A DNA stretch of 64,000 nucleotides from NCBI GenBank assembly GCA_964600985.1, contig CAZRJR010000001.1:45319-109318 (forward strand). Reading direction: 5' to 3'. Shown here one piece after another: positions 1,360-29,101 of this stretch. Positions within the stretch are counted from its first letter, which is position 1. Each line of letters starts with the position of its first letter. Source of the DNA: an uncultured Candidatus Saccharibacteria bacterium. Its GTDB lineage: Bacteria; Patescibacteriota; Saccharimonadia; CAILAD01; JADZBC01. The notes under the pieces are model-generated. The model was not told the DNA's origin, did not search any database, and saw only the letters and a list, made by a program, of their open reading frames with translations. A program made the translations under genes and the position numbers.

Positions 1360-1644
1360 CTACACCTTAAACATAATTATTATAGTAAAGGTCATTACTA
1401 GGCCACCTAGCAGTTTGCGAAAACTGCTATCGCCGTTGGTGATCTCTAGGTAGGCCCAGGTAAACAAAAAAGCCATACTCAAAACGCCGAAGCCGTGTTG
1501 TAATGTATTATTGATTGGTAGCATACTCATGAGCTTAGAGCTAATCCAGCCGATTATCGGTAGGTTGGGGGCTTGGGCTATCACAATATTACCGTCACTA
1601 TTACTGCAAAAGTCTTTGATTCTGTGGTTAAATCTTTTTGCCAT
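1360..1644 (-). CDS. small hypothetical membrane protein
   Basis: 94-aa ORF 9 nt downstream of nadK on the same strand, with two hydrophobic stretches. No recognisable motif. Confidence 0.3.
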   Translation of the reverse strand: MAKRFNHRIKDFCSNSDGNIVIAQAPNLPIIGWISSKLMSMLPINNTLQHGFGVLSMAFLFTWAYLEITNGDSSFRKLLGGLVMTFTIIIMFKV

Positions 1645-1733
1645 AGATTTAAGTATAGCAGCTTGAGTCGGGCCACACCGGCTAGATACTGTACCTACGC
1701 TAACAAATAGACATAGTGTCGGTGTAGCACAAC

Positions 1734-2093
1734 CTACCTGGCATCCTGGGCAATTTTACGAATTGCTTTGGCGCGAGACCTTATAACGTTCTTTATAAGC
1801 TCGTCCGACAAGGGATGTTCGAGAGTGAATTGAATAGTTCCTTTTGACGTGGTGAATCCGCTAAGCTGTGGATCCAGTTCGGCAATAGCCTCGGCACCAG
1901 GGAATATACTTAAGTGTTCTTTGAACGCTGCGTAAGCGATCAGGTACTTACCTGCTAGTTTGAATCCCGGCATACCATAGGTAATGCATTCTGTAGCCTC
2001 GGGTTCTGTTTGCTGGATTAGCTTGCGTACGCGTTGCAGTTCGGCGCGCTGTGGAGCTTTTAGCTTGTTGAGGTAATCTTCAACTTCTTTCAT
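1734..2093 (-). CDS. DUF1801 (YdhG-like) domain protein
   Basis: 119 aa. The pattern of the KYLIAYAAFKEHLSIFPG and GTIQF segments is recalled as the DUF1801 family. Assigned from memory. Confidence 0.5.
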   Translation of the reverse strand: MKEVEDYLNKLKAPQRAELQRVRKLIQQTEPEATECITYGMPGFKLAGKYLIAYAAFKEHLSIFPGAEAIAELDPQLSGFTTSKGTIQFTLEHPLSDELIKNVIRSRAKAIRKIAQDAR

Positions 2094-2217
2094 ATTTATA
2101 GTGTAGCAGAAGTTTCTTTACAATTCCTCAGCTAGTTCCTACCCGGCTTGTCAGACATAGTAATTACGCTTATCATGGCTGTAGTACGAAAAGCGTAAGG
2201 CTTTTGTTTAGAGAGGA

Positions 2218-4128
2218 GTGTCGGGAAATATGGCCAGACTACCTGTTCCTGGTAGCGATAAGGGTACCTGGGGTGAAGTACTTAATGAATTCTTATCCGT
2301 AGAACACAATGCCGACGGTACGCTGAAGCCGGGCGGTACGCTTGGTGCGTATGCTCCTAAAGCGAACCCTACTTTTACAGGTGTAGTAACGGTCCCCACT
2401 CCCACGAATGCCACTGATGCAGTTACTAAGGCGTATGCCGATAATCTGGTAGTAGGTGGCGCACCTGATGCTACAAGTAGTGCAAAAGGTCTCATTCAGC
2501 TTACTGGCGATCTCGGTGGTAGCGCGGCTAACCCTAGCGTGCCTGGCTTGGCGAGTAAAGTGCCTACCTCGCGCACAGTTAATGGCCACGCTCTCTCGGC
2601 AGACATTACGCTTAGTAAAGCAGATCTTGGCCTTGGTAGTGTAGACAACACGTCCGATGCCGGCAAGCCGGTCTCAGCCGCCACTGCCGCGGCATTGGAA
2701 GGCAAAGCAGACAAAAGTGCAGTGCCGGTAAACGTTAAGGATTATGGTGCTGTTGGGGATGGAGCTTCGAATGACACAAGTGCTTTTACAGCAGCTATAA
2801 CAGCGGCTGGCTCGACTCGTTCGATATTTGTCCCAGCCGGTACCTACAAGGTTGATCCAGACTCCATTGCTCTTAGTACGAATGCTGTGATTAAAGGTGA
2901 ATACTATGCTCGCACAATTATTATTTCATCTTCGGGTACCAAGGTGGGATCTGGTATTTCTATTCAAGGCCAAGGCGTCGAAGTGTCCAACCTTTATATT
3001 CGGGGCTACTATTCAGGCATTGAGAATTCTTACTCAAACACAAAGATCTATGACAATAAGTTGTCGTACAACGTCATAGGTATTGATTATGCCGCTAACT
3101 CTTACATAACTAAAGCTCGCGGAAACGAAATTACCTTTAATGATTTAGGCATCATAATCCGTACAAACGCACAGCCTTACCAGCTGCTTGTGACTGAGAA
3201 CACCATAGATAATAATAATGGCGTTGGGATTGCCGTATATGCGACTTCGGGTGGGTTAGTGATCGAGAATAACACCATAGAAGGAAACAGGAACTACTCG
3301 ACTAATGTAGGCTGCGGCATACTGATTAAAAGCTCTAATCTTTCGCGAATAAAGATTGATGGTAATTGGTTTGAGACCAATGGCAATCACGCCACTACTG
3401 CGGTAGATATTCTTATGCTAGCGCCCAACACCGAGCCTAGTACAGGAGCTGCATTACGCTCGGCCATTGTAGGTGTTTTACCTACAGGAGAGCAAGCAAA
3501 TTTTACAAGCGGCGGGTGTGCGTATGGTGCCGTGTCGATTACCAATAATGCCTTCATATTTACCAAGTACAATGTGGTGGTGGCTGGATATAAAACTTTG
3601 GTAGGTATTGCAGACAATAGCTTTAAGGGTGTACTAAATCTAAACAATAAGCATATTTTCCTGAATGTTCCCTCGGGCACTACCGGTATGGGTGGCGGCC
3701 GTGTTGTGATCAATGGCAATGGATACAAGAATTCTGACAATGCTGCGATTGACGCTCAGGTGTCCACTGGGATTGGCGACTCTATTGTATATGCCGACAG
3801 CGTGCTCAGCGGAGCAGGGGACATCTACATATATAACGACAACCCTGTAAATCAGATTATCCAAAAGTCCTCCACGTATACCATTACAGCTACAGACTCT
3901 ATCATTAGTGCTGACGCTACAAGTTCGCCATTTACCATTACACTCCCTAGTGCAGTTAATAATACTGGCAGGACCTATGTAGTGAAGCGTGTAAATGCTG
4001 GCGGGAATGATGTCACTCTCAGTGCTGCAGCCGCAGAGACGATAGACGGTGCTGCATCGGCAATGCTAACTGCTCAGTGGCAAACGGTAAAAGTTATATC
4101 AGATGGATCGAACTGGCTTACCGTGTAG
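2218..4128 (+). CDS. phage-tail-fibre-like surface protein with pectin-lyase-type right-handed beta-helix (paralog 1)
   Basis: 636 aa. The N-terminal ~100 aa is nearly identical in pattern to ORF 23695..25086 (LPxPGxDKGTWGEVLNExL...). It carries the phage tail-fibre repeat ANPTFTGVVTVPTPTNATDAVTKAYAD. The central region has the VKDYGAVGDGASNDTSAF motif typical of the pectate-lyase-3/tailspike beta-helix, followed by repetitive N/G-rich beta-helix coils (NNNGVGIAVYATSGGLVIENNTIEGN). Confidence 0.8.
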   Translation: MSGNMARLPVPGSDKGTWGEVLNEFLSVEHNADGTLKPGGTLGAYAPKANPTFTGVVTVPTPTNATDAVTKAYADNLVVGGAPDATSSAKGLIQLTGDLGGSAANPSVPGLASKVPTSRTVNGHALSADITLSKADLGLGSVDNTSDAGKPVSAATAAALEGKADKSAVPVNVKDYGAVGDGASNDTSAFTAAITAAGSTRSIFVPAGTYKVDPDSIALSTNAVIKGEYYARTIIISSSGTKVGSGISIQGQGVEVSNLYIRGYYSGIENSYSNTKIYDNKLSYNVIGIDYAANSYITKARGNEITFNDLGIIIRTNAQPYQLLVTENTIDNNNGVGIAVYATSGGLVIENNTIEGNRNYSTNVGCGILIKSSNLSRIKIDGNWFETNGNHATTAVDILMLAPNTEPSTGAALRSAIVGVLPTGEQANFTSGGCAYGAVSITNNAFIFTKYNVVVAGYKTLVGIADNSFKGVLNLNNKHIFLNVPSGTTGMGGGRVVINGNGYKNSDNAAIDAQVSTGIGDSIVYADSVLSGAGDIYIYNDNPVNQIIQKSSTYTITATDSIISADATSSPFTITLPSAVNNTGRTYVVKRVNAGGNDVTLSAAAAETIDGAASAMLTAQWQTVKVISDGSNWLTV

Positions 4129-4191
4129 CGGCATGCAGATTAGTTATGTGTGCAGCCGGAGAATATGGAGATCACTCCCTTGTCCACGTAT

Positions 4192-4602
4192 CTATAGCTC
4201 GGGAAGCAGTGCATACATTGCGCTTCCCGGGAGCCGCTTTCTGAAGCCAGACTTGGCCCGAGATATGTCATTACTCTGTGGCAGGTTGATCCATGGATCC
4301 ATCCAGTGGTTGCCGTGCCTTACAAGGTAGTGCCCTGCAGGATACTTTTTTGACCTGCGAATTAATACTATCGTTCCTTCTTTATAAATATGCCCCCGTA
4401 GCTTTTTGTTTATGTATCTTGATTGGTAGCGCAGCCCATTGTTGTTTAGTGCTCTGGCAAGGTCTTTCACCCAAAACCTGTTACTCTTGGCTTGCTTTGG
4501 GCCGAGTAAATCTTCGGCTCGCTTGTAGCTAGTGTTAAGAAGGAAGGCAAAACAGGCTATTCCGCAGCCGTATTCAAACTCTTGAGTTATGCTTTTTCTC
4601 AT
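4192..4602 (-). CDS. papain-like cysteine peptidase, C39-like (BtrH-like) domain protein
   Basis: 136 aa. EYGCGIACFAFLL is a candidate Cys-containing motif and GHYLVRHGNHW a downstream His, as in the standalone Peptidase_C39_2 family. Assigned from memory. Confidence 0.4.
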   Translation of the reverse strand: MRKSITQEFEYGCGIACFAFLLNTSYKRAEDLLGPKQAKSNRFWVKDLARALNNNGLRYQSRYINKKLRGHIYKEGTIVLIRRSKKYPAGHYLVRHGNHWMDPWINLPQSNDISRAKSGFRKRLPGSAMYALLPEL

Positions 4603-4794
4603 ACCAAGAGTGTAGATTTTCTAATTATATATGCAATCTAATAAATACGTTAGTTGATTTTAGAAGGCTTTCACCGAAAGAACTTTTGTGTGCAGTGTTG
4701 GGTGCAGTGGCGTCCGCCTAAAACTTTAAAAGACACTGAGCTTTACAAGCCCAAATGCTTATGTTACCGTTAAGAAATAAGCTGGGATATCAAG

Positions 4795-5301
4795 ATGGCT
4801 CAAGTCAAACCAAGACAACTCTCCGGAAAAAAATCCACGAAAAATAGCAAATTAATCAAACCAAATAAAATGAGCAAGAAGGGCTTAGTGCCTGTCATCG
4901 CGGTTGTTGTGCTTGTTGGTGGATTTGTGGTGTTAAAAACTTTTGCTTCAGGAACACCGAATCGAACATCCAGGTCAGTTAAGTTCAGTAAATCTTACAC
5001 AAGTGGAAAGTTCAAAAGTACTGACGGCAAAGTATGCGTCACAGCTCGCTTTAATAGCAAGTTCTTTCCAGGTATAAAGGATAAGTATTACTGGGCGGTT
5101 CAAGTTTGGGATAGGCAGGGGTTCTATGCTACCGTAGCAACTTCGAAAAAGTATCAGGCTAACGGTAATCGCGATCATGAATGTTATGATGGGCGTATCT
5201 ACAAGGGGAATACGTACCGAGTACAATTCTTAGACGGTGATCCAACATACAACTATACTATAAAGGGGAGTTACTACGCGTCTGGCTTCTATCGTAAGTA
5301 G
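4795..5301 (+). CDS. membrane-anchored hypothetical protein (Lys-rich N-terminus, one TM, Tyr/Cys-rich ectodomain)
   Basis: 168 aa with a KK-rich cytoplasmic head, the TM segment VPVIAVVVLVGGFVVL and a C-terminal Y/K-rich domain. Confidence 0.5.
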   Translation: MAQVKPRQLSGKKSTKNSKLIKPNKMSKKGLVPVIAVVVLVGGFVVLKTFASGTPNRTSRSVKFSKSYTSGKFKSTDGKVCVTARFNSKFFPGIKDKYYWAVQVWDRQGFYATVATSKKYQANGNRDHECYDGRIYKGNTYRVQFLDGDPTYNYTIKGSYYASGFYRK

Positions 5302-5343
5302 TTACTAGCATCTCTAAAGCTAGAAATATGCAGACTGTCAGCG

Positions 5344-6303
5344 CTAAAATTCTCCCGCAAAGCTAATTTCGGGTTCAAGGTGGTAACCTGTCTTAGCCAA
5401 TACTTCCTGTTGGATAGAGGCAATAGCATCCCGTATATCTTTAGCAGAGGCTTGCCCTAGATTGAGAATATAATTAGCATGTAATTCTGATATCATCGCG
5501 CCACCAAAGCACCTGCCCTTTAGGTTTGCCCTCTCGATGAGTCGGCCTGCACCAACTCCTTCAATCTTTTTAAAGACCGAACCGCATGACGGATAGTCTT
5601 CGAGCTGTGGCTGCTTAGACTTACGCCACGCTAAGTTTTCTGCAATACGGTGGTTTATTGTCGATCTGTTGCTCGGCTTAAGCTGGAAGCTAGCTTCGAG
5701 CACGACAATGTTGGCATGGTGTAAGATCGAATCATCATAACCGAACTTAAAGAAGGTTTTGTCGACCACCTTTGTATTATTGTCACTATCAAGAATAACG
5801 CTTGAGACAAATAATTCGCTAATAAAAGCTGTGCTCTTTCGGTCAGGTGACAAAAAGTGCAAGTTTTGTCGGAGTGCCCCACCTACACTGCTTGGAATGC
5901 CTACAAAGTGTTCGAGACCAGAAAGTGACTTGGCCTGAGAAGCTGTTATGAGCTTACTAATAGGGGTACCACTTTCACTTACAAGCTTGTGGCGTTCGAA
6001 GTGAAAAGCACGAGCTTGGTTAAGGATCACAATACCGCGAAAGCCCTTATCGCCAATTAGTATGTTGGCGCCTGTGCCCAGGATAAAGTAGGGAATTTTG
6101 CAACGTCTTGCATATAGGACGGCATCCTTGAGCTCATCTTGTGAGTGCACAGTTACAAACAGATCGGCCGGCCCACCAATTCTGTAGGTTGTATACGGTG
6201 CTAAAGAAATGTGCTTTTCTATCCTTCTAGGGTCTAGCATCCCATAATCATAGCAGCCAACGTGACTTCGGCAAAGGAGCTCTGATCTTGTATGTTGCAG
6301 CAC
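5344..6303 (-). CDS. murB: UDP-N-acetylenolpyruvoylglucosamine reductase
   Basis: 319 aa. The FAD-binding N-terminal motif YTTYRIGGPADLFV and GTGANILIGDKGFRGIVI match the MurB pattern. Confidence 0.85.
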   Translation of the reverse strand: MLQHTRSELLCRSHVGCYDYGMLDPRRIEKHISLAPYTTYRIGGPADLFVTVHSQDELKDAVLYARRCKIPYFILGTGANILIGDKGFRGIVILNQARAFHFERHKLVSESGTPISKLITASQAKSLSGLEHFVGIPSSVGGALRQNLHFLSPDRKSTAFISELFVSSVILDSDNNTKVVDKTFFKFGYDDSILHHANIVVLEASFQLKPSNRSTINHRIAENLAWRKSKQPQLEDYPSCGSVFKKIEGVGAGRLIERANLKGRCFGGAMISELHANYILNLGQASAKDIRDAIASIQQEVLAKTGYHLEPEISFAGEF

Positions 6304-6359
6304 GGAGCACCGTGCTATCTGATCACGCGGGCCTTCTTTTTGAATTTACACTGTAACTT

Positions 6360-6395
6360 AGACTCCCGTAAAGGAGTCTAGTCTTGGAGAGTGCC
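6360..6395. repeat. att-like repeat copy A (degenerate) of the tRNA-Lys 3'-flank element
   Basis: agactcccgtaaaggagtctagtcttggagagtgcc contains a perfect hairpin (agactcc-cgtaaa-ggagtct). It aligns to copies B and C with an internal deletion. Confidence 0.6.
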
Positions 6396-6535
6396 TGAAA
6401 GCCATCTGGAGGCAATGGTAGAGTTAATCGCAAATGAGTTATACAAAACGGAGTAACGAAAGACCGCCCGGTGAAGGACGATCTTGTCGTCCGCACCGAG
6501 CGGTGGAGTAACCAGGTAACTCCTGGCGAGCATCG

Positions 6536-7048
6536 CTACCAGACGAGGTAAGCGTCCCCATGAGGATCGAACGCGAGCCCTGACCCATCGATGGGCCGGA
6601 CTTCCACCTCGTAGCTGGGACGAGTCTCCTGGCTGACGAAGGGCTGCCTGAGCCACTTCTCGATACGGAGGCCGAGGTCGTTCGAGATGGCCTGCCTGCG
6701 CATCTCGTAGCCGTCTTCGCAGTCCGGGTCATCTTTGCGGACCAGCTCTGTCGCATCTCGATCGCCTGGCTGGACGTCGATCGCCCAGTCGTCGTGGTTG
6801 AAGTCCCACGGGTGCTGCCGGTGAACGCGGATCTTGACCTCGCCAGGGGTGATCTTGGTCTTGTCGACCTGACTCACGGCACGAGCAACCATCTTGGGCA
6901 GATCCAGAAGGAACCGCCGCGTGAGCTCGAAGCTGTAGGGGAAGCCCGACGTAGTGCATCCAGGGACTTGGCTGCGCCACTTCGCCTCATGGATCTGGTC
7001 TTCATCGGGCAGCCAGCTGGCTGCACAGAAAACATCAACTACGGGCAT
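6536..7048 (-). CDS. hypothetical protein on GC-rich insert
   Basis: 170-aa ORF in a visibly GC-rich block (~6400..7060) that lies between att-like repeat copies A and B. No motif recognised. Confidence 0.5.
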   Translation of the reverse strand: MPVVDVFCAASWLPDEDQIHEAKWRSQVPGCTTSGFPYSFELTRRFLLDLPKMVARAVSQVDKTKITPGEVKIRVHRQHPWDFNHDDWAIDVQPGDRDATELVRKDDPDCEDGYEMRRQAISNDLGLRIEKWLRQPFVSQETRPSYEVEVRPIDGSGLAFDPHGDAYLVW

Positions 7049-7180
7049 TGTAGCCCTCCTTGTTCAGGACGGGCTAGCCGTCATTGGTCATTCCTAACAC
7101 GAGAACTGGTAAATAGTAGTATAAATACATGAAAAAGTCAATGCATTTAAGCCCAAGCAAAAAGTAGTATTTAACTTATT

Positions 7181-7226
7181 AGACTCCCACAAAGGGGTCT
7201 TCAAGCATAAGGTCTATGGAGGGCCA
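7181..7226. repeat. att-like repeat copy B (46 bp)
   Basis: agactcccacaaaggggtcttcaagcataaggtctatggagggcca has 2 mismatches to copy C at 7998..8043. The final tggagggcca duplicates the reverse-complement 3' end of tRNA-Lys (acceptor + discriminator + CCA). Confidence 0.8.
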
Positions 7227-7257
7227 TCGTAGTGCCAGTAGCAACTGCTATAAGGAG

Positions 7258-7974
7258 CTAAGCAGCTGCGGCTAAAGTCACGCTACTAATGTCCCGCTCG
7301 AGAATAGCCTTACGATCAGAGCCAACATCTAAGCCGTAGGCGTTATAAAAAAATGCTTCTGCGTAATCTTCATTAGGCGCCTTACTGCCATATTTTGTTA
7401 CTGCAGTCTCGGACGATAGGGAAACGAAACCAACTCCCTCTGTACCGTATGCTCGTGCTTCTAACATATGACCCATTTCGTGCACGATAGTAATCTCTCC
7501 ATAGCTTAGGTCTGGGCTAACTTTTGAGGTCCAGTCGCCAGGATTAAGAAAGCCCATTTCGACGAGCAGGGCTTCTACATCGCCCACACTCATTGCGGCT
7601 TTTGATGCATCCATAATTATTGCGTTTTCATCTGCTAATGCCTCGCCGCCTGTATCAATTGCTCCATCAGCAAAGTAAATCTTAAGTCCAGGAAATGCTG
7701 CTTCAAGCTGACCACCGAATTGATCTTGCAGCCGATCTAGTGCCGCCTTAGCAGCAGAGGCAAGTGCTTCCATCTGCTCTATGTTGCCAAGCCCTATGAC
7801 CTCGATACCTCCCACGGAGGCCATGGCGTGCTGCTCTGACCCAAATTGTTGCAATATCGTTTCTATTCGGCTAGACTCCATCTCCTTTTCTTGAGGTATC
7901 ATCGCCTTTAACTCATCAGCCAGCTTTTGTGGCTTATCCGTAGCTTCCTCGGGGTTGTTCGAGAGGGTTTCCAT
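7258..7974 (-). CDS. HExxH zinc-metallopeptidase-like protein
   Basis: VHEMGHMLEARAYG carries an HExxH motif. The ORF track extends to 8061, but that start would overlap repeat copy C and the tRNA-Lys 3' end, so the internal Met at 7974 (METLSNN...) is preferred. Confidence 0.55.
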   Translation of the reverse strand: METLSNNPEEATDKPQKLADELKAMIPQEKEMESSRIETILQQFGSEQHAMASVGGIEVIGLGNIEQMEALASAAKAALDRLQDQFGGQLEAAFPGLKIYFADGAIDTGGEALADENAIIMDASKAAMSVGDVEALLVEMGFLNPGDWTSKVSPDLSYGEITIVHEMGHMLEARAYGTEGVGFVSLSSETAVTKYGSKAPNEDYAEAFFYNAYGLDVGSDRKAILERDISSVTLAAAA

Positions 7975-7997
7975 GGACTCATCATACCAACCAAAAA

Positions 7998-8043
7998 AGA
8001 CTCCCGCAAAGGGGTCTTCAATCATAAGGTCTATGGAGGGCCA
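7998..8043. repeat. att-like repeat copy C: tRNA-Lys 3' end plus downstream terminator hairpin (46 bp)
   Basis: agactcccgcaaaggggtcttcaatcataaggtctatggagggcca overlaps the last ~10 nt of tRNA-Lys. On the minus-strand transcript the hairpin is followed by a T6 tract. Confidence 0.8.
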
Positions 8044-8110
8044 GGTGGGATTCGAACCCACGACATGCTGCTTAAGAGGCAGCCGCTCTAACCAACTGAG
8101 CTACTGGCCC
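8034..8110 (-). tRNA. tRNA-Lys (anticodon CTT), CCA encoded
   Basis: The reverse complement reads GGGCCAGTAGCTCAGTTGGTTAGAGCGGCTGCCTCTTAAGCAGCATGTCGTGGGTTCGAATCCCACCTGGCCCTCCA. It folds as a cloverleaf with anticodon loop CTCTTAA and T-loop GTTCGAATC. Confidence 0.85.
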
Positions 8111-8134
8111 GCAATTGTGCGGACATATTGTGCA

Positions 8135-8211
8135 TGGTGCGCCCTGAGGGATTCGAACCCCCGGCCTTCTGATCCGAAGTCAGACGCTCTATCCAGCTGA
8201 GCTAAGGGCGC
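8135..8211 (-). tRNA. tRNA-Arg (anticodon TCG), CCA encoded
   Basis: The reverse complement reads GCGCCCTTAGCTCAGCTGGATAGAGCGTCTGACTTCGGATCAGAAGGCCGGGGGTTCGAATCCCTCAGGGCGCACCA. The anticodon loop is CTTCGGA and the D-loop has A20 (CTGGATAG), typical of Arg. Confidence 0.85.
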
Positions 8212-8307
8212 ATCTCTCATTTAGTGAGGCTCAAGAACCAGGTTATTTTAGCACAAAAATTCATCCACGGCTAGACCTGTTATATAGGAGTCACTACCAG
8301 TATAATA

Positions 8308-9603
8308 GTGCGAATGAAGCACTCCCTACACCATGCCAAGCTGAGTGGCGGCTCCGAGCTCCTACTCATAGATGTGCCAAACTCGCCGGCTCTATACTTT
8401 TCGTCTATTGTGCGCGCTGGATTGCGCTACGGTGAGCCCAAGCGCTCCGAGCTACCTCACTTGCTGGAGCATTTGGCATTTGAGGGCAATAAGGACTACC
8501 CCGACGGCCAAGACTTTGCCTTTGAGGTAGAGAAGCTCGGTGCGTACTCCAATGCCGAAACGAGTGAAACCGCAATTCGCTACTGGTTTGAGTCGAGCAT
8601 TAGCTCGCTCGATAATGTAATTAGTTTGGCCTGCTCACAGCTCAAGGAACCAACCTTTGCGCCCAAGGCTATTCGACAAGAAAAAGAGGTAGTTACCCAA
8701 GAGCTTCTGCGCTATAAGGAAGACGATGGTGAGCGAGCCTGGTTAGCTAACATGCGCCAATTCTTTGCGGATGGCTACCCAAGCATACGGCAGAGCATAG
8801 AGTCGTTGGATGCTATTCGGCGCAAAGACTTGGTGGACTTTTACAATGCCACCCATACTACGGGCAATACTAAGTTTCTGCTCGCGGGTGCGTTTAATGG
8901 CAATGCACAGCATACGGTTCGCCAGCTCGAGCAAAACCTAGCCGACTACCGCGCTGGCAAAGAACTCGACTGGGTGGCGCGCCCTCTTACTCCCAAACTC
9001 GAGCGGAGTAGTAGTTTAACCACTAAGCTTTCTGCCCAGGCGCACTTTCGTCTTACCTTCCACTTGCCAGAGTCACACTACGAGCTCCTGCCAGCGTTGA
9101 GGATATTCAATACTATCTTTAACGTAGGTAGTTTCTCGCGCTATCATCACTTGGCCCGTCGTCGTGGGCTTTCGTACCATCCATACTCTGGTTTTGGCAC
9201 AAACCCGGACTACACGGAGTTCTTCATGGCTGATCAAACGGAGCCGAGCAAAGCCCTGCCGCTCTTTGAATTAGGCGTGCGCGAGCTTAGTAAGATTATG
9301 CAAGGCGAATTTAGCGCGCGTGAGTTTGAGCGAGCCAGGGGTTACGTAACGGGCGATTTTGAATCGAGCTTTCAAAAGCCGAGTAACTTTGCAGGCTGGT
9401 ATGGACATGACTTTAGCGCTGGCCGCAAGCTAACTGACCCAACTGAGTACAAGGCTCGCTTGGAGGCTGTGCAGCCTGCCGATCTAGAGCAGCTGGCTAT
9501 ACTGTTTACATCTGGTAGATGGGTACTAAGCCTAGTGGGGCAGACCATGCGTGAGCAAGAAGATAAGTTCCGCATGGTGCTACGGAAGTATTTAGGGCGT
9601 TAA
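8308..9603 (+). CDS. M16-family (pitrilysin-like) zinc peptidase
   Basis: 431 aa. It carries the inverted zinc-binding motif HxxEH (LPHLLEHLAFEG) with a downstream Glu-rich segment, and its size is typical of M16B. Confidence 0.65.
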   Translation: MRMKHSLHHAKLSGGSELLLIDVPNSPALYFSSIVRAGLRYGEPKRSELPHLLEHLAFEGNKDYPDGQDFAFEVEKLGAYSNAETSETAIRYWFESSISSLDNVISLACSQLKEPTFAPKAIRQEKEVVTQELLRYKEDDGERAWLANMRQFFADGYPSIRQSIESLDAIRRKDLVDFYNATHTTGNTKFLLAGAFNGNAQHTVRQLEQNLADYRAGKELDWVARPLTPKLERSSSLTTKLSAQAHFRLTFHLPESHYELLPALRIFNTIFNVGSFSRYHHLARRRGLSYHPYSGFGTNPDYTEFFMADQTEPSKALPLFELGVRELSKIMQGEFSAREFERARGYVTGDFESSFQKPSNFAGWYGHDFSAGRKLTDPTEYKARLEAVQPADLEQLAILFTSGRWVLSLVGQTMREQEDKFRMVLRKYLGR

Positions 9604-9693
9604 TATCCTTAGACCCGGGCGTGTCTGAAGCGTCTAATGCGGAATTGTTGTCCACCCCTTGTCCTTTTCTTGAGAAGAAGTTAGAGTTAGGCT

Positions 9694-10077
9694 ATGGATC
9701 TAATTCAGCAAGGATATGAACAGAAGGGGGCGTGGGGTATCTCTACATCTATAGACTTGTACGGATGTGACGCTGAAAAAATCCGTAATGCCAAAGCTAT
9801 TGAAAATTTTGTGGTTGAGCTCTGTGATCTAATAAAAGTAACGCGGTTTGGTGAGTGTCAGGTTGTTCACTTCGGTGAAAAAGAAGAGATTGCTGGTTTC
9901 TCTATGACACAGCTTATTGAAACATCGCTTGTTTCTGCTCACTTTGCTAATCAAACAAATACAACTTACCTAGATGTTTTTTCTTGTAAATACTATAACC
10001 CGCAAATAGTTGCTGATTTCGCTAAAAAGTATTTTGAAGCCGAGAATTACGCCATGAATTATAATCTAAGAAAGTAG
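9694..10077 (+). CDS. S-adenosylmethionine-decarboxylase-fold (SpeH/SpeD class 1b-like) protein with substituted processing/catalytic residues
   Basis: 127 aa. It can be aligned by eye to B. subtilis SpeD (GCDxxKL near the N-terminus; IIETSLVSAHFANQ versus VIISESHLTIHSFPE). The Ser that becomes the pyruvoyl group (E-S-H) is Thr here, and the adjacent His and the FPE Glu are not conserved. Confidence 0.55.
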   Translation: MDLIQQGYEQKGAWGISTSIDLYGCDAEKIRNAKAIENFVVELCDLIKVTRFGECQVVHFGEKEEIAGFSMTQLIETSLVSAHFANQTNTTYLDVFSCKYYNPQIVADFAKKYFEAENYAMNYNLRK

Positions 10078-23694: not shown

Positions 23695-25086
23695 CTACGC
23701 CCTATGAAGCTTTACTACTGCCGAATTGAGTACCATGTCTATCTGTGCGCCAGTCGTAGAGAAGGTGGTATAGGCACGAATAGTGTGAGTTCCCGATTGA
23801 TCAATGCTCGATGTTGCCGAGCCGACCGATGTAGTACCGGTGACCGCCCATCCAGCAGTTGAACCGTTGGAGAGGTGGAAGATGCCCGAACTTGATTGTG
23901 TGCTAAGGCTCGAACCGATTACTATTTCGATAGCAGCACGCCATTTGCGTCGATCGGCATTGGCGGCTACACTCGTCATGGTATCAGTCATAACAAGCGT
24001 GTCGGCAATGTAGAGTCGAAAACCAAGATCTATGGCAGAACCCGAATCATTGTTAAATGTACCGGCTAAGGTGAGTTCAATTACATCACCAGTTTGTAGC
24101 TTTCCACTCGCGACTGAGTATGAGTACAGGTCACCATTAGAGGTGACAGTGCTTGGTGTGGCGCTGGAATCGAGTACATGGGTACCGCTCGAATCTACAT
24201 ACGACTTGGTGGTAACGTCGTTTGCATCCACGGGTGTAGCGGCCGATAGTATGGTGAAACGACCAGTTGCCGAGGAGCTCATAAACGCCGAGCCGTTAGC
24301 TGTGGTTATGCCTAGTCCTGGTGTTCCAAATGCGTTACCAAGCCCTGCGTAGTAGCCTGTGGGTACATCGGTAGGGTAGGCTAGTACCGAGCCTGCTCCA
24401 ACTGTAACCACTCCATTACCACTGGGGTCTACAGTGAGGTTACCCGTCATGGTGCCGCCAGACTTTTGAAGACTCGACGTGAACTCAGACTCATTCACAC
24501 TAATGGTAGATATACCAGTAACTGGTGCAGATATGTCTATGCCGGCACCCGCTACGAGCTCTGGCGCACCGAGCTGCGAGTTTACATATTGCTTGGTGGT
24601 GGCGTCGGTGGCATTAACTGGTTCGGGTACGGTAACTGTGCCGGTAAAGGTGGGGCTTGCTAGGGGGGCTTTGCTGGCTAGATCACTGGTAAGGTTGGCT
24701 ATCTTGGACTGAGCAATCGCCGCACTACTGTTTACGTTGGCATCCACAATTGCATTGGCTGCTATTTGCGGACTGTCCGCAGTGCCGGCTAAGTCGCCTG
24801 CCAATTGAATCTTGCCCTTCGAGGAGGTAGTGGCATCGGCCACTCCCGAGGAAACAAGCCCATCGGCGTAGGCTTTGGTAACGGCCTGATTGGCACTGGT
24901 GGGTGTAGGTACAGTTACACTACCGGTAAAAGTAGGGTTGGCAAGCGGCGCATAGCTAGCCAGCGTACCACCCGACTTAAGCGTACCGTCGCTATTATGC
25001 TCTACGCCAAGGTACTCATTAAGGACTTCTCCCCAAGTGCCTTTGTCGCCTCCTGGCTGCGGTAACCGTGCCAACTCCACCTCCAT
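23695..25086 (-). CDS. phage-tail-fibre-like surface protein (paralog 2)
   Basis: 463 aa. Its N-terminus (LARLPQPGGDKGTWGEVLNEYLGVEHNSDGTLKSGGTLASYAP) matches ORF 2218..4128. It has three tail-fibre repeats of the form (A/S)NPTFTG.VTVP.P...A.TK.Y(A/V)(D/N), with Ser/Thr/Gly-rich beta-strand regions after them. Confidence 0.75.
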   Translation of the reverse strand: MEVELARLPQPGGDKGTWGEVLNEYLGVEHNSDGTLKSGGTLASYAPLANPTFTGSVTVPTPTSANQAVTKAYADGLVSSGVADATTSSKGKIQLAGDLAGTADSPQIAANAIVDANVNSSAAIAQSKIANLTSDLASKAPLASPTFTGTVTVPEPVNATDATTKQYVNSQLGAPELVAGAGIDISAPVTGISTISVNESEFTSSLQKSGGTMTGNLTVDPSGNGVVTVGAGSVLAYPTDVPTGYYAGLGNAFGTPGLGITTANGSAFMSSSATGRFTILSAATPVDANDVTTKSYVDSSGTHVLDSSATPSTVTSNGDLYSYSVASGKLQTGDVIELTLAGTFNNDSGSAIDLGFRLYIADTLVMTDTMTSVAANADRRKWRAAIEIVIGSSLSTQSSSGIFHLSNGSTAGWAVTGTTSVGSATSSIDQSGTHTIRAYTTFSTTGAQIDMVLNSAVVKLHRA

Positions 25087-26145: not shown

Positions 26146-26333
26146 ACTTTAATCCTAACACAAAAGACTCCTCTCAAAGTCTTTTGTTGGCAATTACTAC
26201 ATTGGTGATCCTAATGACTGAAATCTCGAACTTCAAGGACAGTTTGAGGATCTTAACTGCGAAACCCTAGAAACGACAAAGCCGACTGACGCGCGAGGCG
26301 CCAATCGGCAATGCCAGTTCGGTACTCCGATGT

Positions 26334-26825
26334 TCAGTACGACCAGTAGTCGCCGTAGTCGGAGAACGGGTCGTCGTAGTCGTAGCGACGGTGGCCGACG
26401 TCGACGAGGCTGAAGGCGAAGTCGCCTTCGTCATCAGACTCCATCTCGCGAGCGGAGGCCTCATCGTCTCGACACCACCAGCAGAGCTTCTCGCCACCAC
26501 AGGTGATGTACCAGGTCTCGGCGTCCTCATCGAACACCAGGTGATGCAGGCGCTCGTCCTCGAGGACCTGCATCCGGAAGAGGCGCCGACCGAGCTCGTC
26601 GTGGGTGCGGTAGTCGTCGACGTGGATGCCGAGATCGAAACGCACGGTGACCAGGGCCTTCTTGCCGGGGGTGAACGAGACACCGGGGCCGTTGAACGGG
26701 CCGTAGGGTCCTGGGATCGGCAGCACATCGACGAGTGTGCGGTCGAGGATCTGGAGGGTGACGTTGACCTGGCGCTCAGCGGCGAGCAGCAGGTCTTTCG
26801 AGGTGCCCTCGTACTCGATGGACAT
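26334..26825 (-). CDS. hypothetical acidic protein on high-GC insert
   Basis: It starts at the internal Met (MSIEYEG...) of ORF 26334..26915. Over a sampled 60 nt the minus frame shows the canonical high-GC codon pattern (GC3 ~85% > GC1 > GC2 ~40%), whereas the antisense ORF 26391..26894 does not. Two Cys pairs are present (CGG...CWWC). Confidence 0.45.
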   Translation of the reverse strand: MSIEYEGTSKDLLLAAERQVNVTLQILDRTLVDVLPIPGPYGPFNGPGVSFTPGKKALVTVRFDLGIHVDDYRTHDELGRRLFRMQVLEDERLHHLVFDEDAETWYITCGGEKLCWWCRDDEASAREMESDDEGDFAFSLVDVGHRRYDYDDPFSDYGDYWSY

Positions 26826-26946
26826 GTTTTCCAGGAGGCACATGGCCGTCCCTTTCATGATCGTCTTGGATGGGTGCGAACTGACAGAACTTAACGTTCG
26901 TCGTAATAATAGCATAAAAATAATAAATTGTCAAGACTGGTGATCC

Positions 26947-26965
26947 CGCGGGGAATACTAGATGT
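26947..26965. repeat. 19-bp direct duplicate of the tRNA-Glu 3' end (att-like)
   Basis: tggtgatcccgcggggaat matches 27103..27121 exactly (reverse complement: T-arm 3' half + acceptor + CCA of tRNA-Glu). Confidence 0.9.
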
Positions 26966-27102
26966 ATAACCATCGTCATTCGTTAAGCCCAAAAGCAAGC
27001 TTTCGGCTTTGTCTCACTCCTCGATTATCGAACCCCTTCGGTGCTCAGTCGCCAACGCAACTACCATACAAAAAGCCCGAGCATAGGCTCAGGCACTTTG
27101 TA

Positions 27103-27177
27103 TGGTGATCCCGCGGGGAATCGAACCCCGATTGCCAGGATGAAAACCTGGTGTCCTAACCGTTAGACGACGGGACC
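27103..27177 (-). tRNA. tRNA-Glu (anticodon TTC), CCA encoded
   Basis: The reverse complement reads GGTCCCGTCGTCTAACGGTTAGGACACCAGGTTTTCATCCTGGCAATCGGGGTTCGATTCCCCGCGGGATCACCA. It is closely similar in architecture to E. coli tRNA-Glu, and the anticodon loop is TTTTCAT. Confidence 0.85.
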
Positions 27178-27624
27178 TCGTCCAAGCATGAACTTTAGCT
27201 TCTCGTCTCGCAGTATGCAAGCCTGTCAGCTGCCGTCATGCTTCTCCACTCGATTTTGTAAACAGCTTCTAGCGTCGCTTCGGTTCACAAAATCGGTTAA
27301 GGTCTAAAACAGACAAATTAACCATGTAATAGTAGCATTTTAGTACCTAAGTTTCAAGGTGGCAGGCGCCCATAAAACGAAAGAACCCCACGGATTCTAT
27401 CCGTAGGGTATGTATGGTGTCCGCCTGGGGCGAGACCCGGGTGTGAACGATGTGTTCTGCCCGGGTCTCGCCCGACCCGCTCTCCGTGGTGTGGAGAACG
27501 TGGGGCTCCCCCTGTCCGGTGGAGGGAGGACCGCTTGGCGTGCGCCAAGCCGGGGGAGCCCCGAAGGTGGCCGGTCGCAACTGGGGCGGGCAGCCAGCGC
27601 GACCGGCCGATCTTGGCGGCTTGT

Positions 27625-28107
27625 TCAGCCGCCGTCGACCGGTTGGCCGACGCTCACCTCATTGGTCGAGGTGTCCACCACCTTGCACTTCACACCCTTG
27701 GTGTACGGGGTGGCGTGCTTGGCGTCCGGCGGCAGGATCTGGGCCTGTCGGCACGTTGTGACGACCGTGTGGCCATCCGTGGTCTTCACCACCTTCCCGT
27801 GGGTAACCATCACGTGGTCGCATCTGTTGCCATCCGCGAAGGTCGCGTCGAGGTTCAGGCTGTGCGCCTTCATGTAGGCGCGGTAGCCAGCCTTGATGGC
27901 ATCCTGCTGCCCCTGGCACTTGCCGGCGTTGTAGCCGTGGTTGAAGCCATCCTCGTAGCGGTGGGTGTGATACTGGGAGGCCCAGTAACACATTCCGGCG
28001 ATGATCGCCAAGCTGATCACAAGGATCGGCACGGCGGGGATGTAGGGGCGACTGCCAGTCACCCCATCGGTGCCCTTGCGGGCGGTGTCTGGTGTGGGGG
28101 AGGCCAT
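27625..28107 (-). CDS. hypothetical membrane-anchored/secreted protein on high-GC insert
   Basis: 160 aa with an N-terminal TM/signal segment (IPAVPILVISLAIIAGMCYWA) and an extracytoplasmic domain with 4 Cys. Its composition is more protein-like than the low-complexity Ala/Gly/Arg-rich antisense ORFs. Confidence 0.4.
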   Translation of the reverse strand: MASPTPDTARKGTDGVTGSRPYIPAVPILVISLAIIAGMCYWASQYHTHRYEDGFNHGYNAGKCQGQQDAIKAGYRAYMKAHSLNLDATFADGNRCDHVMVTHGKVVKTTDGHTVVTTCRQAQILPPDAKHATPYTKGVKCKVVDTSTNEVSVGQPVDGG

Positions 28108-29101
28108 GCCGCCCCTCCTTTCTGAGGTGCGTTCGTGATCCGGTTGATCACGAAAAGTGAAGCTATAATATCAGAAAGATAGCATTAAGTCAATACTCTT
28201 ATGGGGCTTAGAACAGAGAAACCCGCTTGAGTCTCTCGGATGTCCTTTGTGGGACGGTAGAGAAACCCAGGCGGGTGGTTGGGTGTGGTGCGTCGACTAG
28301 CTCTGGATCACCTGCCAGCCCTGCAGATGGCGGTAGAACATCACTGCGATCATGAAGAGCACAACCACAATGACGACACACAGGAGTTTGCACAGGAGCT
28401 CCCGATCTCCCGCCTTGACTGCCGTGTCCTGACGATCGTGCAGGTATGGCTGGGTGTAGGGCGCGTAGGGCCAGTATTTACGCATATCACCTTCTTTCAG
28501 AGGGTTGGCGCTGCCATCATGGCGATAACAGCGATGATGAACAGGATGGCGCAAGCACGCAACAGCGGTAGTAGAAGACATCGCCGACGTGGCCAGGTAA
28601 CGCTGGGTTGAACGGCTTGGCCAGGCCCTACGTAATGCACCCGCGGATGATCCGTGGTGTAGTGGCGCTGCATCACAGGGTCACGCTTCGTGCGCAAACT
28701 GCTAGCAAGAACCCCACCAGGATCACCAGGACCAGAAGGCCCCGACTGCCGATCGTCATCGCGCCGTCGCCATGACGATGATCAATCCCGCGATGATGAG
28801 TAGCAGCAAGACCCGACGAAGTGACCTTGAAGTGTTAGACGAACTCGTCTGACACTCGTTCTGCCACCATGGCTTCGGAATGCCGTACCTCGGTTCGCCA
28901 AGGCGACCGTCTTCACCATCACTTCCTTCCACTACATTACCTCCTGATTGTCGGTATGTTTTTTGGTTATTTCCAGGTGCTAAACAGCGTGGCTCAACTA
29001 TATTCTTGCAAAAAGGAAAAATCAATATATTTTCTCGATTGGTGTTTGTGCCGGATTAGCCTATAATAAAGCGTAAGAACTAAGATTAACCTGGGCGGCG
29101 G

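Follow-up and report, generated by a model that had tools for sequence, protein, structure and literature searches.

The cis-mobilizable elements (CIMEs) of streptococci are integrase-less, att-flanked derivatives of integrative and conjugative elements. They are kilobase-scale, occur singly or in pairs, and are mobilised by the integrase of another element. In Streptococcus agalactiae, inserts are bracketed by direct repeats of the tRNA-Lys CTT 3′ end. IMEX elements (integrative mobile elements exploiting Xer), located at dif, and the pdif modules of Acinetobacter plasmids have 28-bp dif-like sites (11-6-11), and are moved in trans by a tyrosine recombinase of the host. Tycheposons, the tRNA-anchored islands of Prochlorococcus, are multi-gene and have their own tyrosine recombinase and replication module (bioRxiv 10.1101/2020.12.28.424599). 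Here, these systems and integrons are compared with a locus found in a 64,000-nt stretch of DNA (hereafter "the window") from an uncultured Candidatus Saccharibacteria bacterium (GenBank assembly GCA_964600985.1, contig CAZRJR010000001.1, positions 45,319 to 109,318). At this locus, two single-gene inserts, carrying the open reading frames (ORFs) B and A, follow a tRNA-Lys(CTT) gene and are bounded by repeats of its 3′ end. Judged by its sequence, the locus appears to be a short, two-cassette member of a gene-cassette array architecture that is anchored at tRNA-Lys(CTT) and common to a clade of Saccharibacteria. No description of this architecture was found in full-text searches of the literature on Saccharibacteria or Patescibacteria together with integrons, cassettes, islands or integrases, or on integron-like tRNA arrays.

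Comparison with described systems

The locus and its relatives have in common with integrons the arrays of small, mostly single-gene and mostly ORFan cassettes, the site at each cassette 3′ end, and the single orientation of all sites. As in integrons, the same cassette was found in different positions and genomes, and the newest unit plausibly lies beside the primary site. This primary site, however, is not an attI but the 3′ end of a tRNA gene, with tRNA-Lys(CTT) in the place of attB or attI. The cassette site is a pseudo-tRNA 3′ end of ~29 nt, whereas attC is an imperfect palindrome of 57-141 nt with R''/L''/L'/R' boxes (GTTRRRY core) and a single-strand hairpin. Cassettes bring their own predicted terminator and promoter here, whereas integron cassettes rely on Pc. 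There is no intI beside the array: the best tBLASTn match of a hand-entered IntI1 seed in the window and array loci was spurious (E 0.79), and Pfam found no Phage_integrase in the flanking and cassette ORFs. RNAalifold found no consensus structure in 21 repeat copies. The conserved part is an asymmetric arm followed by GGCCCTCCA, and the sole palindromic part of the repeat is a terminator stem of 6-8 bp, variable or absent between units. Because an adjacent intI and a structured attC were both looked for and both lacking, the locus is not to be filed as an integron.

Like CIMEs, the inserts are att-flanked and have no recombination module; they differ from them in being uniform one-gene units, which stand at least 10 in a row in relatives. 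An integrase-bearing cognate element for a CIME-like mobilisation was not seen in the 64 kb or in the fetched loci. As in tRNA-targeting islands, direct repeats of the tRNA 3′ end flank the inserts and the tRNA is intact; an integrase inside the insert, the further mark of such islands, is lacking. The likeness to tycheposons extends to streamlined genomes, tRNA-seeded islands, partial-tRNA repeats between successive insertions, and cargo-only remnants. In contrast to tycheposons, the units here have no recombinase and are built regularly, each as a single-gene cassette with the conserved arm; a tycheposon-type tyrosine recombinase with a replication module was found neither by tBLASTn with hand-entered seeds nor by Pfam on the cassette ORFs. 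IMEX elements and pdif modules are likewise small recombinase-less gene modules bounded by short recombination sites, but the invariant element of the present family is a tRNA 3′ end. By inspection, a CATAA-GCA-TTATG palindrome in the type-A spacer of the repeats resembles the inner dif arms; its centre is 3 nt and not 6, and it is absent from several units.

Repeats at the tRNA-Lys locus

Read on the minus strand, the locus consists of an M16 peptidase gene (divergent), tRNA-Arg, tRNA-Lys, repeat copy 1, ORF B, repeat copy 2, ORF A, repeat copy 3 and murB. The array anchor, tRNA-Lys(CTT) (8034..8110, minus strand), was placed by ARAGORN and Rfam (75.5 bits). The repeat core, TGGCCCTCCA, is identical with the terminal 10 nt of this gene: acceptor 3′ strand, discriminator base and CCA. 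A first-pass annotation of the window had taken the right end of the repeated element to be the end of this tRNA, and the two predictions bear it out. The upstream partner of the anchor is tRNA-Arg(TCG) (8135..8211, minus strand; ARAGORN; Rfam tRNA, 72.3 bits). Rfam found nothing beyond these two tRNAs in 5000-9000.

Repeat scans, pattern counts and the profile search were run over all 64 kb. The repeat search recovered a 46-nt direct repeat pair at 7181-7226 and 7998-8043 (96% identity, 2 mismatches), as first annotated, and a 22-nt family with three copies (6358-6379, 7179-7200 and 7996-8017). Three matches to the hairpin pattern AGACTCCCRYAAAGGRGTCT, with up to 2 mismatches, were found in the window, all of them at this locus, and none in 100 shuffles. 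The sequence GGCCCTCCA occurs exactly twice, at 8034-8042 and 7217-7225. With filters off, the three best matches of the repeat-family profile were 7206-7247 (E 1.4e-9), 8022-8043 (E 0.014) and 6407-6433 (E 0.044). An analogous tRNA-Glu locus apart, the 46-nt element does not occur elsewhere in the remaining 60 kb. Three copies at a single locus in 64 kb do not make a scattered family of terminators or repetitive extragenic palindromic (REP)-like elements.

Copy 1, on the tRNA side (7998..8043, minus strand), has the core at 8034-8043, the spacer at 8018-8033 and a terminator hairpin at 7998-8017, which folds as RNA with -15 kcal/mol and has a U run past the stem. Copy 2 (7181..7245, minus strand), the best profile match, has the core at 7217-7226, the spacer at 7201-7216 and the hairpin at 7181-7200. 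It is extended leftward by a 19-nt cassette-specific arm (7227-7245, GTTGCTACTGGCACTACGA), which belongs to the repeat family. Copies 1 and 2 have one unusual spacer and stem variant in common. Copy 3 (6360..6433, minus strand) is degenerate. Its arm and core, TTGCGATTAACTCTACCATTGCC-TCCA, lie at 6407-6433, followed by a 27-nt spacer (6380-6406) and a perfect 7-bp hairpin (6360-6379), and it appears to be a full but decayed site with arm, core, spacer and hairpin. The first-pass annotation had noted a degenerate copy at 6360..6395, which is real but too short, as arm and core were left out. Its general view of the repeats, as att-like sequences made of the tRNA-Lys 3′ end and a downstream terminator that bound two single-gene inserts, was upheld.

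Arrays in related Saccharibacteria

Array loci were reached via homologues of ORF B; the species of the window was not represented among the GTDB species genomes searched with murB. All comparison loci are metagenome contigs (JGI, NCBI, ENA and Logan). The ranges of cores given here run from the first to the last internal core, with the copy at the tRNA end uncounted.

In three loci, L085, L086 and L097, the same tRNA-Arg/tRNA-Lys(CTT) pair heads a long series of inserts. The number of units in related arrays runs from 4 to at least 10, and their length from 0.36 to 2.1 kb. The 8.4 kb of L097 contain 10 units (360-2110 bp), with internal cores from 1414 to 9068 and, in addition, a weak one at 6433-6461. 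Internal cores span 5242 to 11716 in L086 and 5932 to 10291 in L085. In L108/L109, from a more distant lineage whose ORF B is 72% identical, 3.7 kb contain five cores, and the arm is GTTCCAATAnnCCCCACAAT. The cores are all in one orientation, and the genes face either way (L108, L097). The arrangement of the window itself is reproduced in an independent Logan contig, L004. The comparison of this tRNA-Lys locus between relatives, which the first-pass annotation had called for, showed a conserved repeat family and a cassette content that differs between genomes, and not the identical content of an ancient structural feature.

Within a unit, the stop codon is followed by an arm of the form GT(T/A)(G/C)C-N7-(C/T)C(T/C)AC-GA and by the core TGGCCCTCCA. 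Past the core there is usually a spacer (AGCATAAGCATTATGA, with the version TAGACCTTATGMTTGA in the window), a terminator hairpin, a T run, a -10 box and, 6-7 nt on, the ATG of the next gene. The hairpin has the variants GACTCCTTTGCGGGAGTC, AAGACGTGAAAGCGTCTT and CCCCTTGTAATCGAGGGG, or is missing. The cassette 3′ site of ~29 nt is thereby made up of a cassette-specific arm and the invariant core (T)GGCCCTCCA, and the cassette 5′ end begins immediately past a core. In the arm, some positions are fixed and others are free. It resembles the T arm of the tRNA (GTGGG-TTCGAAT-CCCAC-C), and the lone TTT-specific unit has CTTGC-N7-TTCCAG, matching the T-stem ends of that tRNA (CTGGG...CCCAG). By eye, only 2-4 internal pairs of the arm are kept (GT.G / C.AC), and its likeness to the T arm is suggestive only.

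Sequence profiles (A4 and R1) were built from arm, core and spacer. The profile search gave 58 sites in 1.26 Mb of fetched DNA, all in array loci and all on the tRNA strand, and no matches in ~1.1 Mb of other bacterial loci. The element is specific to a clade of Saccharibacteria. A genome-wide family of terminators, as entertained in the first-pass annotation, fits neither this silence nor the confinement of the element in the window. Two repeat patterns had no matches in viral contigs, and in metagenome contigs the first had none and the second matched one locus (L098); these collections hardly cover the clade.

Some array cargo is recognisable. A murI-ddl pair lies between cores in L085 (8395-10301), and murI is reversed in L108 (1559-2263). 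A csoR-DUF305-copA copper operon was seen past the last core in L085. Two 136-aa ORFs, one in the window and one in L086, were considered as relatives and rejected.

Cassette junctions and movement

Counted from the tRNA, the ORF B cassette stands first in the window, second in L085-L087 and fourth in L097. It was also found behind tRNA-Lys(TTT), as unit 1 in L095, L098 and L110, and as unit 2 in L094, after a 143-bp unit. In all these positions it retains its own CTT-type arm. A 61% ORF B homologue lies directly behind tRNA-Glu in L101-L103, and remoter homologues (46-51%) are in ordinary chromosomal contexts. ORF B is 84-87% identical in nucleotides to the array copies, versus 69-71% for the flanking M16 gene.

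Insertions and replacements can be delimited in closely related contigs. L087 and L085 are 100% and 99.8% identical on either side of one ~790-bp cassette that is present in L087 only. This cassette (GC 0.56) has two small ORFs, and 33-43 nt of arm end, core and spacer are duplicated at its borders. A 90.8% identical copy is found at another position in L086. L086 and L085 are 98.5% identical up to a breakpoint right after ...CCAAGCATAAGCATTATGA, which follows the same 503-aa gene. The geneless 143-bp unit of L094, at tRNA-Lys(TTT), is bracketed by just CCAGTGGGCCCTCCA. All junctions have just one segment in common, GGCCCTCCA, and conservation stops precisely at the last base of the tRNA. Junctions with such boundaries would be the expected leftover of a site-specific crossover at the tRNA 3′ end, and we consider it fairly probable that the cassettes move by site-specific exchange at the tRNA-derived core.

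Mechanism and alternative explanations

In the mechanism that we propose, the core of an excised circular cassette would recombine with the 3′ end of the tRNA or with any of the cores already present in the array. The insertion would regenerate the tRNA and leave the cassette bracketed by direct repeats. Since no recombinase is encoded at the locus, it would be encoded elsewhere and act in trans, and could be a tyrosine recombinase of the host or of a helper element, or another enzyme. By analogy with CIMEs, IMEX elements and pdif modules, an agent supplied in trans by the host or a helper element seems the likeliest, with a tyrosine integrase as the presumed catalyst. An IS200/IS605-like or a group II intron mechanism was rejected, as such genes or RNAs are absent. 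Taken as a whole, the observations may represent an undescribed kind of integron-like gene capture in a clade of Saccharibacteria. Its primary sites would be tRNA 3′ ends (Lys-CTT, Lys-TTT and Glu-TTC) and its cassette sites pseudo-tRNA 3′ ends; the cassettes would have their own terminator and leaderless promoter, and the recombinase would be unlinked. Native and foreign GC-rich genes would both be captured, and the arrays would be a main route of gene gain and loss in genomes of <1 Mb. This broad proposal is tentative, and we hold it with slightly more doubt than conviction.

Several observations weigh against the proposed mechanism of exchange. tBLASTn searches with hand-entered XerD, IntI1 and gamma-delta resolvase seeds found nothing in the window or the array loci, and the XerD seed in particular found no Xer gene in the window. 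Pfam found no integrase, recombinase or transposase in 28 window ORFs or in 10 cassette ORFs without an assigned function. Junctions of a circle or of an empty site were not seen directly. Copies of the commonest repeat type are identical over up to ~60 nt, from which recombination dependent on RecA could yield some of the rearrangements. The housekeeping genes murI-ddl between cores (L085, L108) are unusual for a purely accessory cassette array. Finally, some of the Logan contigs among the comparison data break at repeats.

Natural competence, with integration of the DNA by homologous recombination, is documented in Saccharibacteria (PMC10633639). The repeat might therefore serve as portable homology, with RecA crossovers adding or replacing units, deletions occurring between direct repeats, and no dedicated recombinase involved. 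We regard this as unlikely, although it would agree with the documented competence and with loci that have no recombinase. It could explain swaps between the long type-A repeats by their identical stretches, and the unusual spacer and stem variant common to the two window copies fits gene conversion. However, many junctions have just 9-16 nt in common (15 nt in L094), too short a stretch for efficient RecA recombination. At positions 2928 and 5830 of L097, 6748 of L085 and in all L108 units nothing is common to the right of the CCA, and L108 units have only arm end and core in common. Homologous recombination also does not account for a conserved block that always ends exactly at the terminal CCA of the tRNA, for the same architecture at different tRNA genes, each with its cognate core, or for the entry of a new unit at a single site. 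The fixed and free positions of the arm are, moreover, what would be expected of a protein-binding site.

The first-pass annotation had described the inserts as decayed or minimal islands. Two integrase-bearing islands would have integrated in tandem at the tRNA-Lys 3′ end, and would then have lost their integrases and most of their cargo. Its observation that no integrase remains is correct, as each insert has one ORF and neither encodes a recombinase. Direct repeats of tRNA 3′ ends are the classic footprint of tRNA-targeting integrases, and tandem accretion that leaves remnants has been described for tycheposon islands, among others (bioRxiv 10.1101/2020.12.28.424599). The foreign composition of ORF A and the degenerate distal repeat copy also fit this history. 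Against it stand ~35 units in the window, L085, L086, L097 and L108 that are equally compact, none with an integrase or a fragment of one. In most units the arm starts a few nt past the stop codon, and a given single-gene unit can be found intact at several positions and tRNAs. Random decay would not repeatedly yield exact one-gene units with intact sites, and we consider the history of decay quite improbable. Because relatives hold 4 to at least 10 uniform units without integrase fragments, and cassettes occur at varied positions and tRNAs, the single-gene units themselves, and not eroded islands, appear to be the mobile entities.

A fixed intergenic terminator and promoter module spread by local duplication, or an assembly artefact, with no mobility at all, is very improbable: a terminator-like hairpin and a -10 box are indeed part of the repeat, and the comparison data are all metagenome assemblies, but cassettes are present or absent between contigs that are 99.8-100% identical, the same cassette stands in different contexts across independent JGI, NCBI, ENA and Logan assemblies, L004 repeats the arrangement of the window, and the element is otherwise missing from the window except at tRNA-Glu.

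Cassette cargo

ORF B (7258..7974, minus strand), the cargo of cassette 1, encodes 238 aa, and its composition does not deviate from that of the window ORFs. Neither ORF B nor ORF A had a match in Pfam, PHROG, NCBIfam or PADLOC. ORF B had 26 homologues, and the motifs H165-E-x-G-H169 and E202-D-Y-x-E206 were invariant across 22 sequences. The best fold matches of its AlphaFold2 model (predicted local distance difference test, pLDDT, 86) were anthrax lethal factor (M34), Pro-Pro endopeptidase and M1 aminopeptidases, all weak (E >= 0.013). From motif and model, ORF B is a probable small metallopeptidase of the gluzincin type. An HExxH metallopeptidase had been proposed at first; the invariant HExGH makes this plausible, and the fold matches to M34 and M1 add weak agreement. 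With its native composition and near-perfect 46-nt repeats, this cassette takes the tRNA-proximal place, and it is probably the most recent arrival.

ORF A (6536..7048, minus strand; 170 aa) is the cargo of cassette 2. Its GC content is 0.616, and 0.772 at third codon positions, compared with 0.494 ± 0.039 and 0.499 ± 0.058 in the 27 other window ORFs (z = 3.1 and 4.7). The gene in this segment had already been singled out as visibly GC-rich, and in composition ORF A is foreign. Homologues were few at close range (2) and more numerous at remote range (33). In the family, an N-terminal Met-Pro is present in at least 90% of sequences, and R117-R118 is invariant. The AlphaFold2 model has a pLDDT of 92, and its top fold matches all belong to the tautomerase superfamily (4-oxalocrotonate tautomerase, MIF, CHMI and cis-CaaD; best E 4.7e-3), which suggests a tautomerase-like fold.

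The 5′ part of cassette 2 is an AT-rich leader (7049..7180, minus strand) with a promoter-like site, TTGACT-17-TACTAT (7141..7113), and, ahead of ORF A, an AAGGAGG ribosome-binding site. Conservation with the homologue loci L001 and L002 covers the final ~55 nt up to the ATG. In the 3′ untranslated region there is a GC-rich stem-loop (6463..6504, minus strand). The RNA fold of 6400-6540 on this strand reached -53 kcal/mol (z = -4.4), and none of 200 shuffles was as stable; the stem-loop is probably the terminator of ORF A itself. The two close homologues are 84% and 76% identical, and their backgrounds are unrelated: L001 (1-800) is AT-rich, with a Bacteroidota-like neighbour that has a signal peptide, and L002 (840-1668) and L003 are GC-rich. 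The non-coding flanks of L001, L002 and L003 are conserved, namely the promoter region with an inverted repeat, ATGATACCAC...TGGTATTAT, and ~120 nt past the stop. Conserved flanks in differing backgrounds suggest that ORF A is carried by another small mobile module. ORF A and L002 had no match in phage and plasmid collections (tBLASTn, blastn). Because it has its own promoter-like site, a conserved 5′ untranslated region with AAGGAGG and its own 3′ stem-loop, ORF A is a foreign module in an AT-rich cassette frame. Its cassette is probably the older of the two, and its distal site has decayed.

Expression signals

Read from the sequence, a T run and an extended -10 box, TGGTATGAT (hexamer 7981-7986), occupy 7975..7997 (minus strand), 6 nt before the ATG of ORF B. 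The module TTTTTGATTGGTATGAT-N6-ATG stands ahead of most cassettes in L085, L086 and L097, and is part of the repeat family in these relatives. The -10 box is often TGGTATGAT, and lies 6-7 nt before the ATG with no ribosome-binding site, an arrangement that indicates leaderless transcripts and makes the module a putative leaderless promoter. The gene murB shows the same -10/ATG arrangement, so the leaderless layout is the host's own style.

The repeat hairpins fold as short stems followed by U runs. In L097 there are 14 terminator-like sites, versus 7.5 ± 2.3 in shuffles, and the top five are repeat hairpins, which points to these hairpins acting as intrinsic terminators. The repeat may thus insulate the cassettes, by ending the upstream transcript and starting a leaderless transcript of the next gene.

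Flanking genes and a second locus

On the tRNA side, the locus is flanked by the M16 peptidase gene (8308..9603, plus strand; Pfam), which is syntenic in L085 and L086 at the nucleotide identity given above. Directly upstream of tRNA-Arg, L085 (4716-5051), L086 (4026-4361) and L097 (250-585) share a conserved 111-aa ORF that matched no family. The window lacks it, and there the M16 gene adjoins tRNA-Arg.

The distal flank is murB (5344..6303, minus strand; Pfam MurB_C 1e-26 and FAD_binding_4). Its true start is probably near 6240, as alignments of homologues begin near residue 20. Among GTDB species genomes (loci L008-L063), its closest relatives are in Saccharibacteria metagenome-assembled genomes at 54-59%, without the tRNA-Lys neighbourhood. 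The closest outside Saccharibacteria are in Gemmatimonadota and Acidobacteriota metagenome-assembled genomes at 50-55%. That these outside relatives come almost as near as those in other Saccharibacteria hints that murB was laterally transferred long ago. Another core after murB was considered and rejected; the similar stretch is coding sequence of a convergent gene.

Between copy 3 and murB, a 50-nt remnant (6310..6359, plus strand) of the 3′ end of a reverse-oriented Exo_endo_phos-type gene was found by blastn to L086. Positions 8903-8974 of L086 match 6378-6310 of the window (83% over 72 nt, E 1.7e-14), and comprise the hairpin and the last ~15 codons of a gene (8928-9743, minus strand; PF03372) that forms the next cassette of L086. 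The window therefore formerly had a third cassette, deleted save for the 50 nt that now abut murB.

A second locus of the same kind is present in the window at tRNA-Glu (26203-27177, minus strand). It is headed by tRNA-Glu(TTC) (27103-27177, minus strand). An exact 19-nt copy of the tRNA-Glu 3′ end (ATTCCCCGCGGGATCACCA) lies 165 nt downstream, at 26938-26956, and is preceded by a geneless unit with a terminator hairpin. Past this copy there are a TTGACA-17-TATTAT promoter and a GC-rich ORFan (26334-26858), and then a degenerate core, AGGATCACCA, at 26203-26212, followed by hairpin, T run, TAGGAT and ATG. On the 5′ side of tRNA-Glu there is a GC-rich block (27250-28125, GC >= 0.60) with a 160-aa ORF (27625-28107, minus strand) that has a probable membrane segment and no Pfam match. 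This foreign-looking DNA is on the "wrong" side of the tRNA for 3′-end integration. Elsewhere in the window, two large ORFs (2218-4128, plus strand, and 23695-25086, minus strand) have a common N-terminal motif, (A/E)LARLPxPGxDKGTWGEVLNE(F/Y)L, and Ala/Thr/Ser-rich repeats; their products are probably paralogues, of a surface or fibre-like kind.

Significance

The arm-plus-core motif (profile R1) is a search key for further arrays and their cargo in metagenomes, and the cassette sites could be landing pads for genetic tools in cultivable Saccharibacteria. If the proposal is true, the arrays would be an independent parallel to integrons with a different site logic, and would bear on the origin of cassettes and recombination sites. 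ORFs of native type and GC-rich foreign ORFs share one cassette frame. Saccharibacteria and other members of the candidate phyla radiation have tiny, reduced genomes in which gene acquisition is poorly understood, and the array would give them a compact, expression-ready platform for gene flux.

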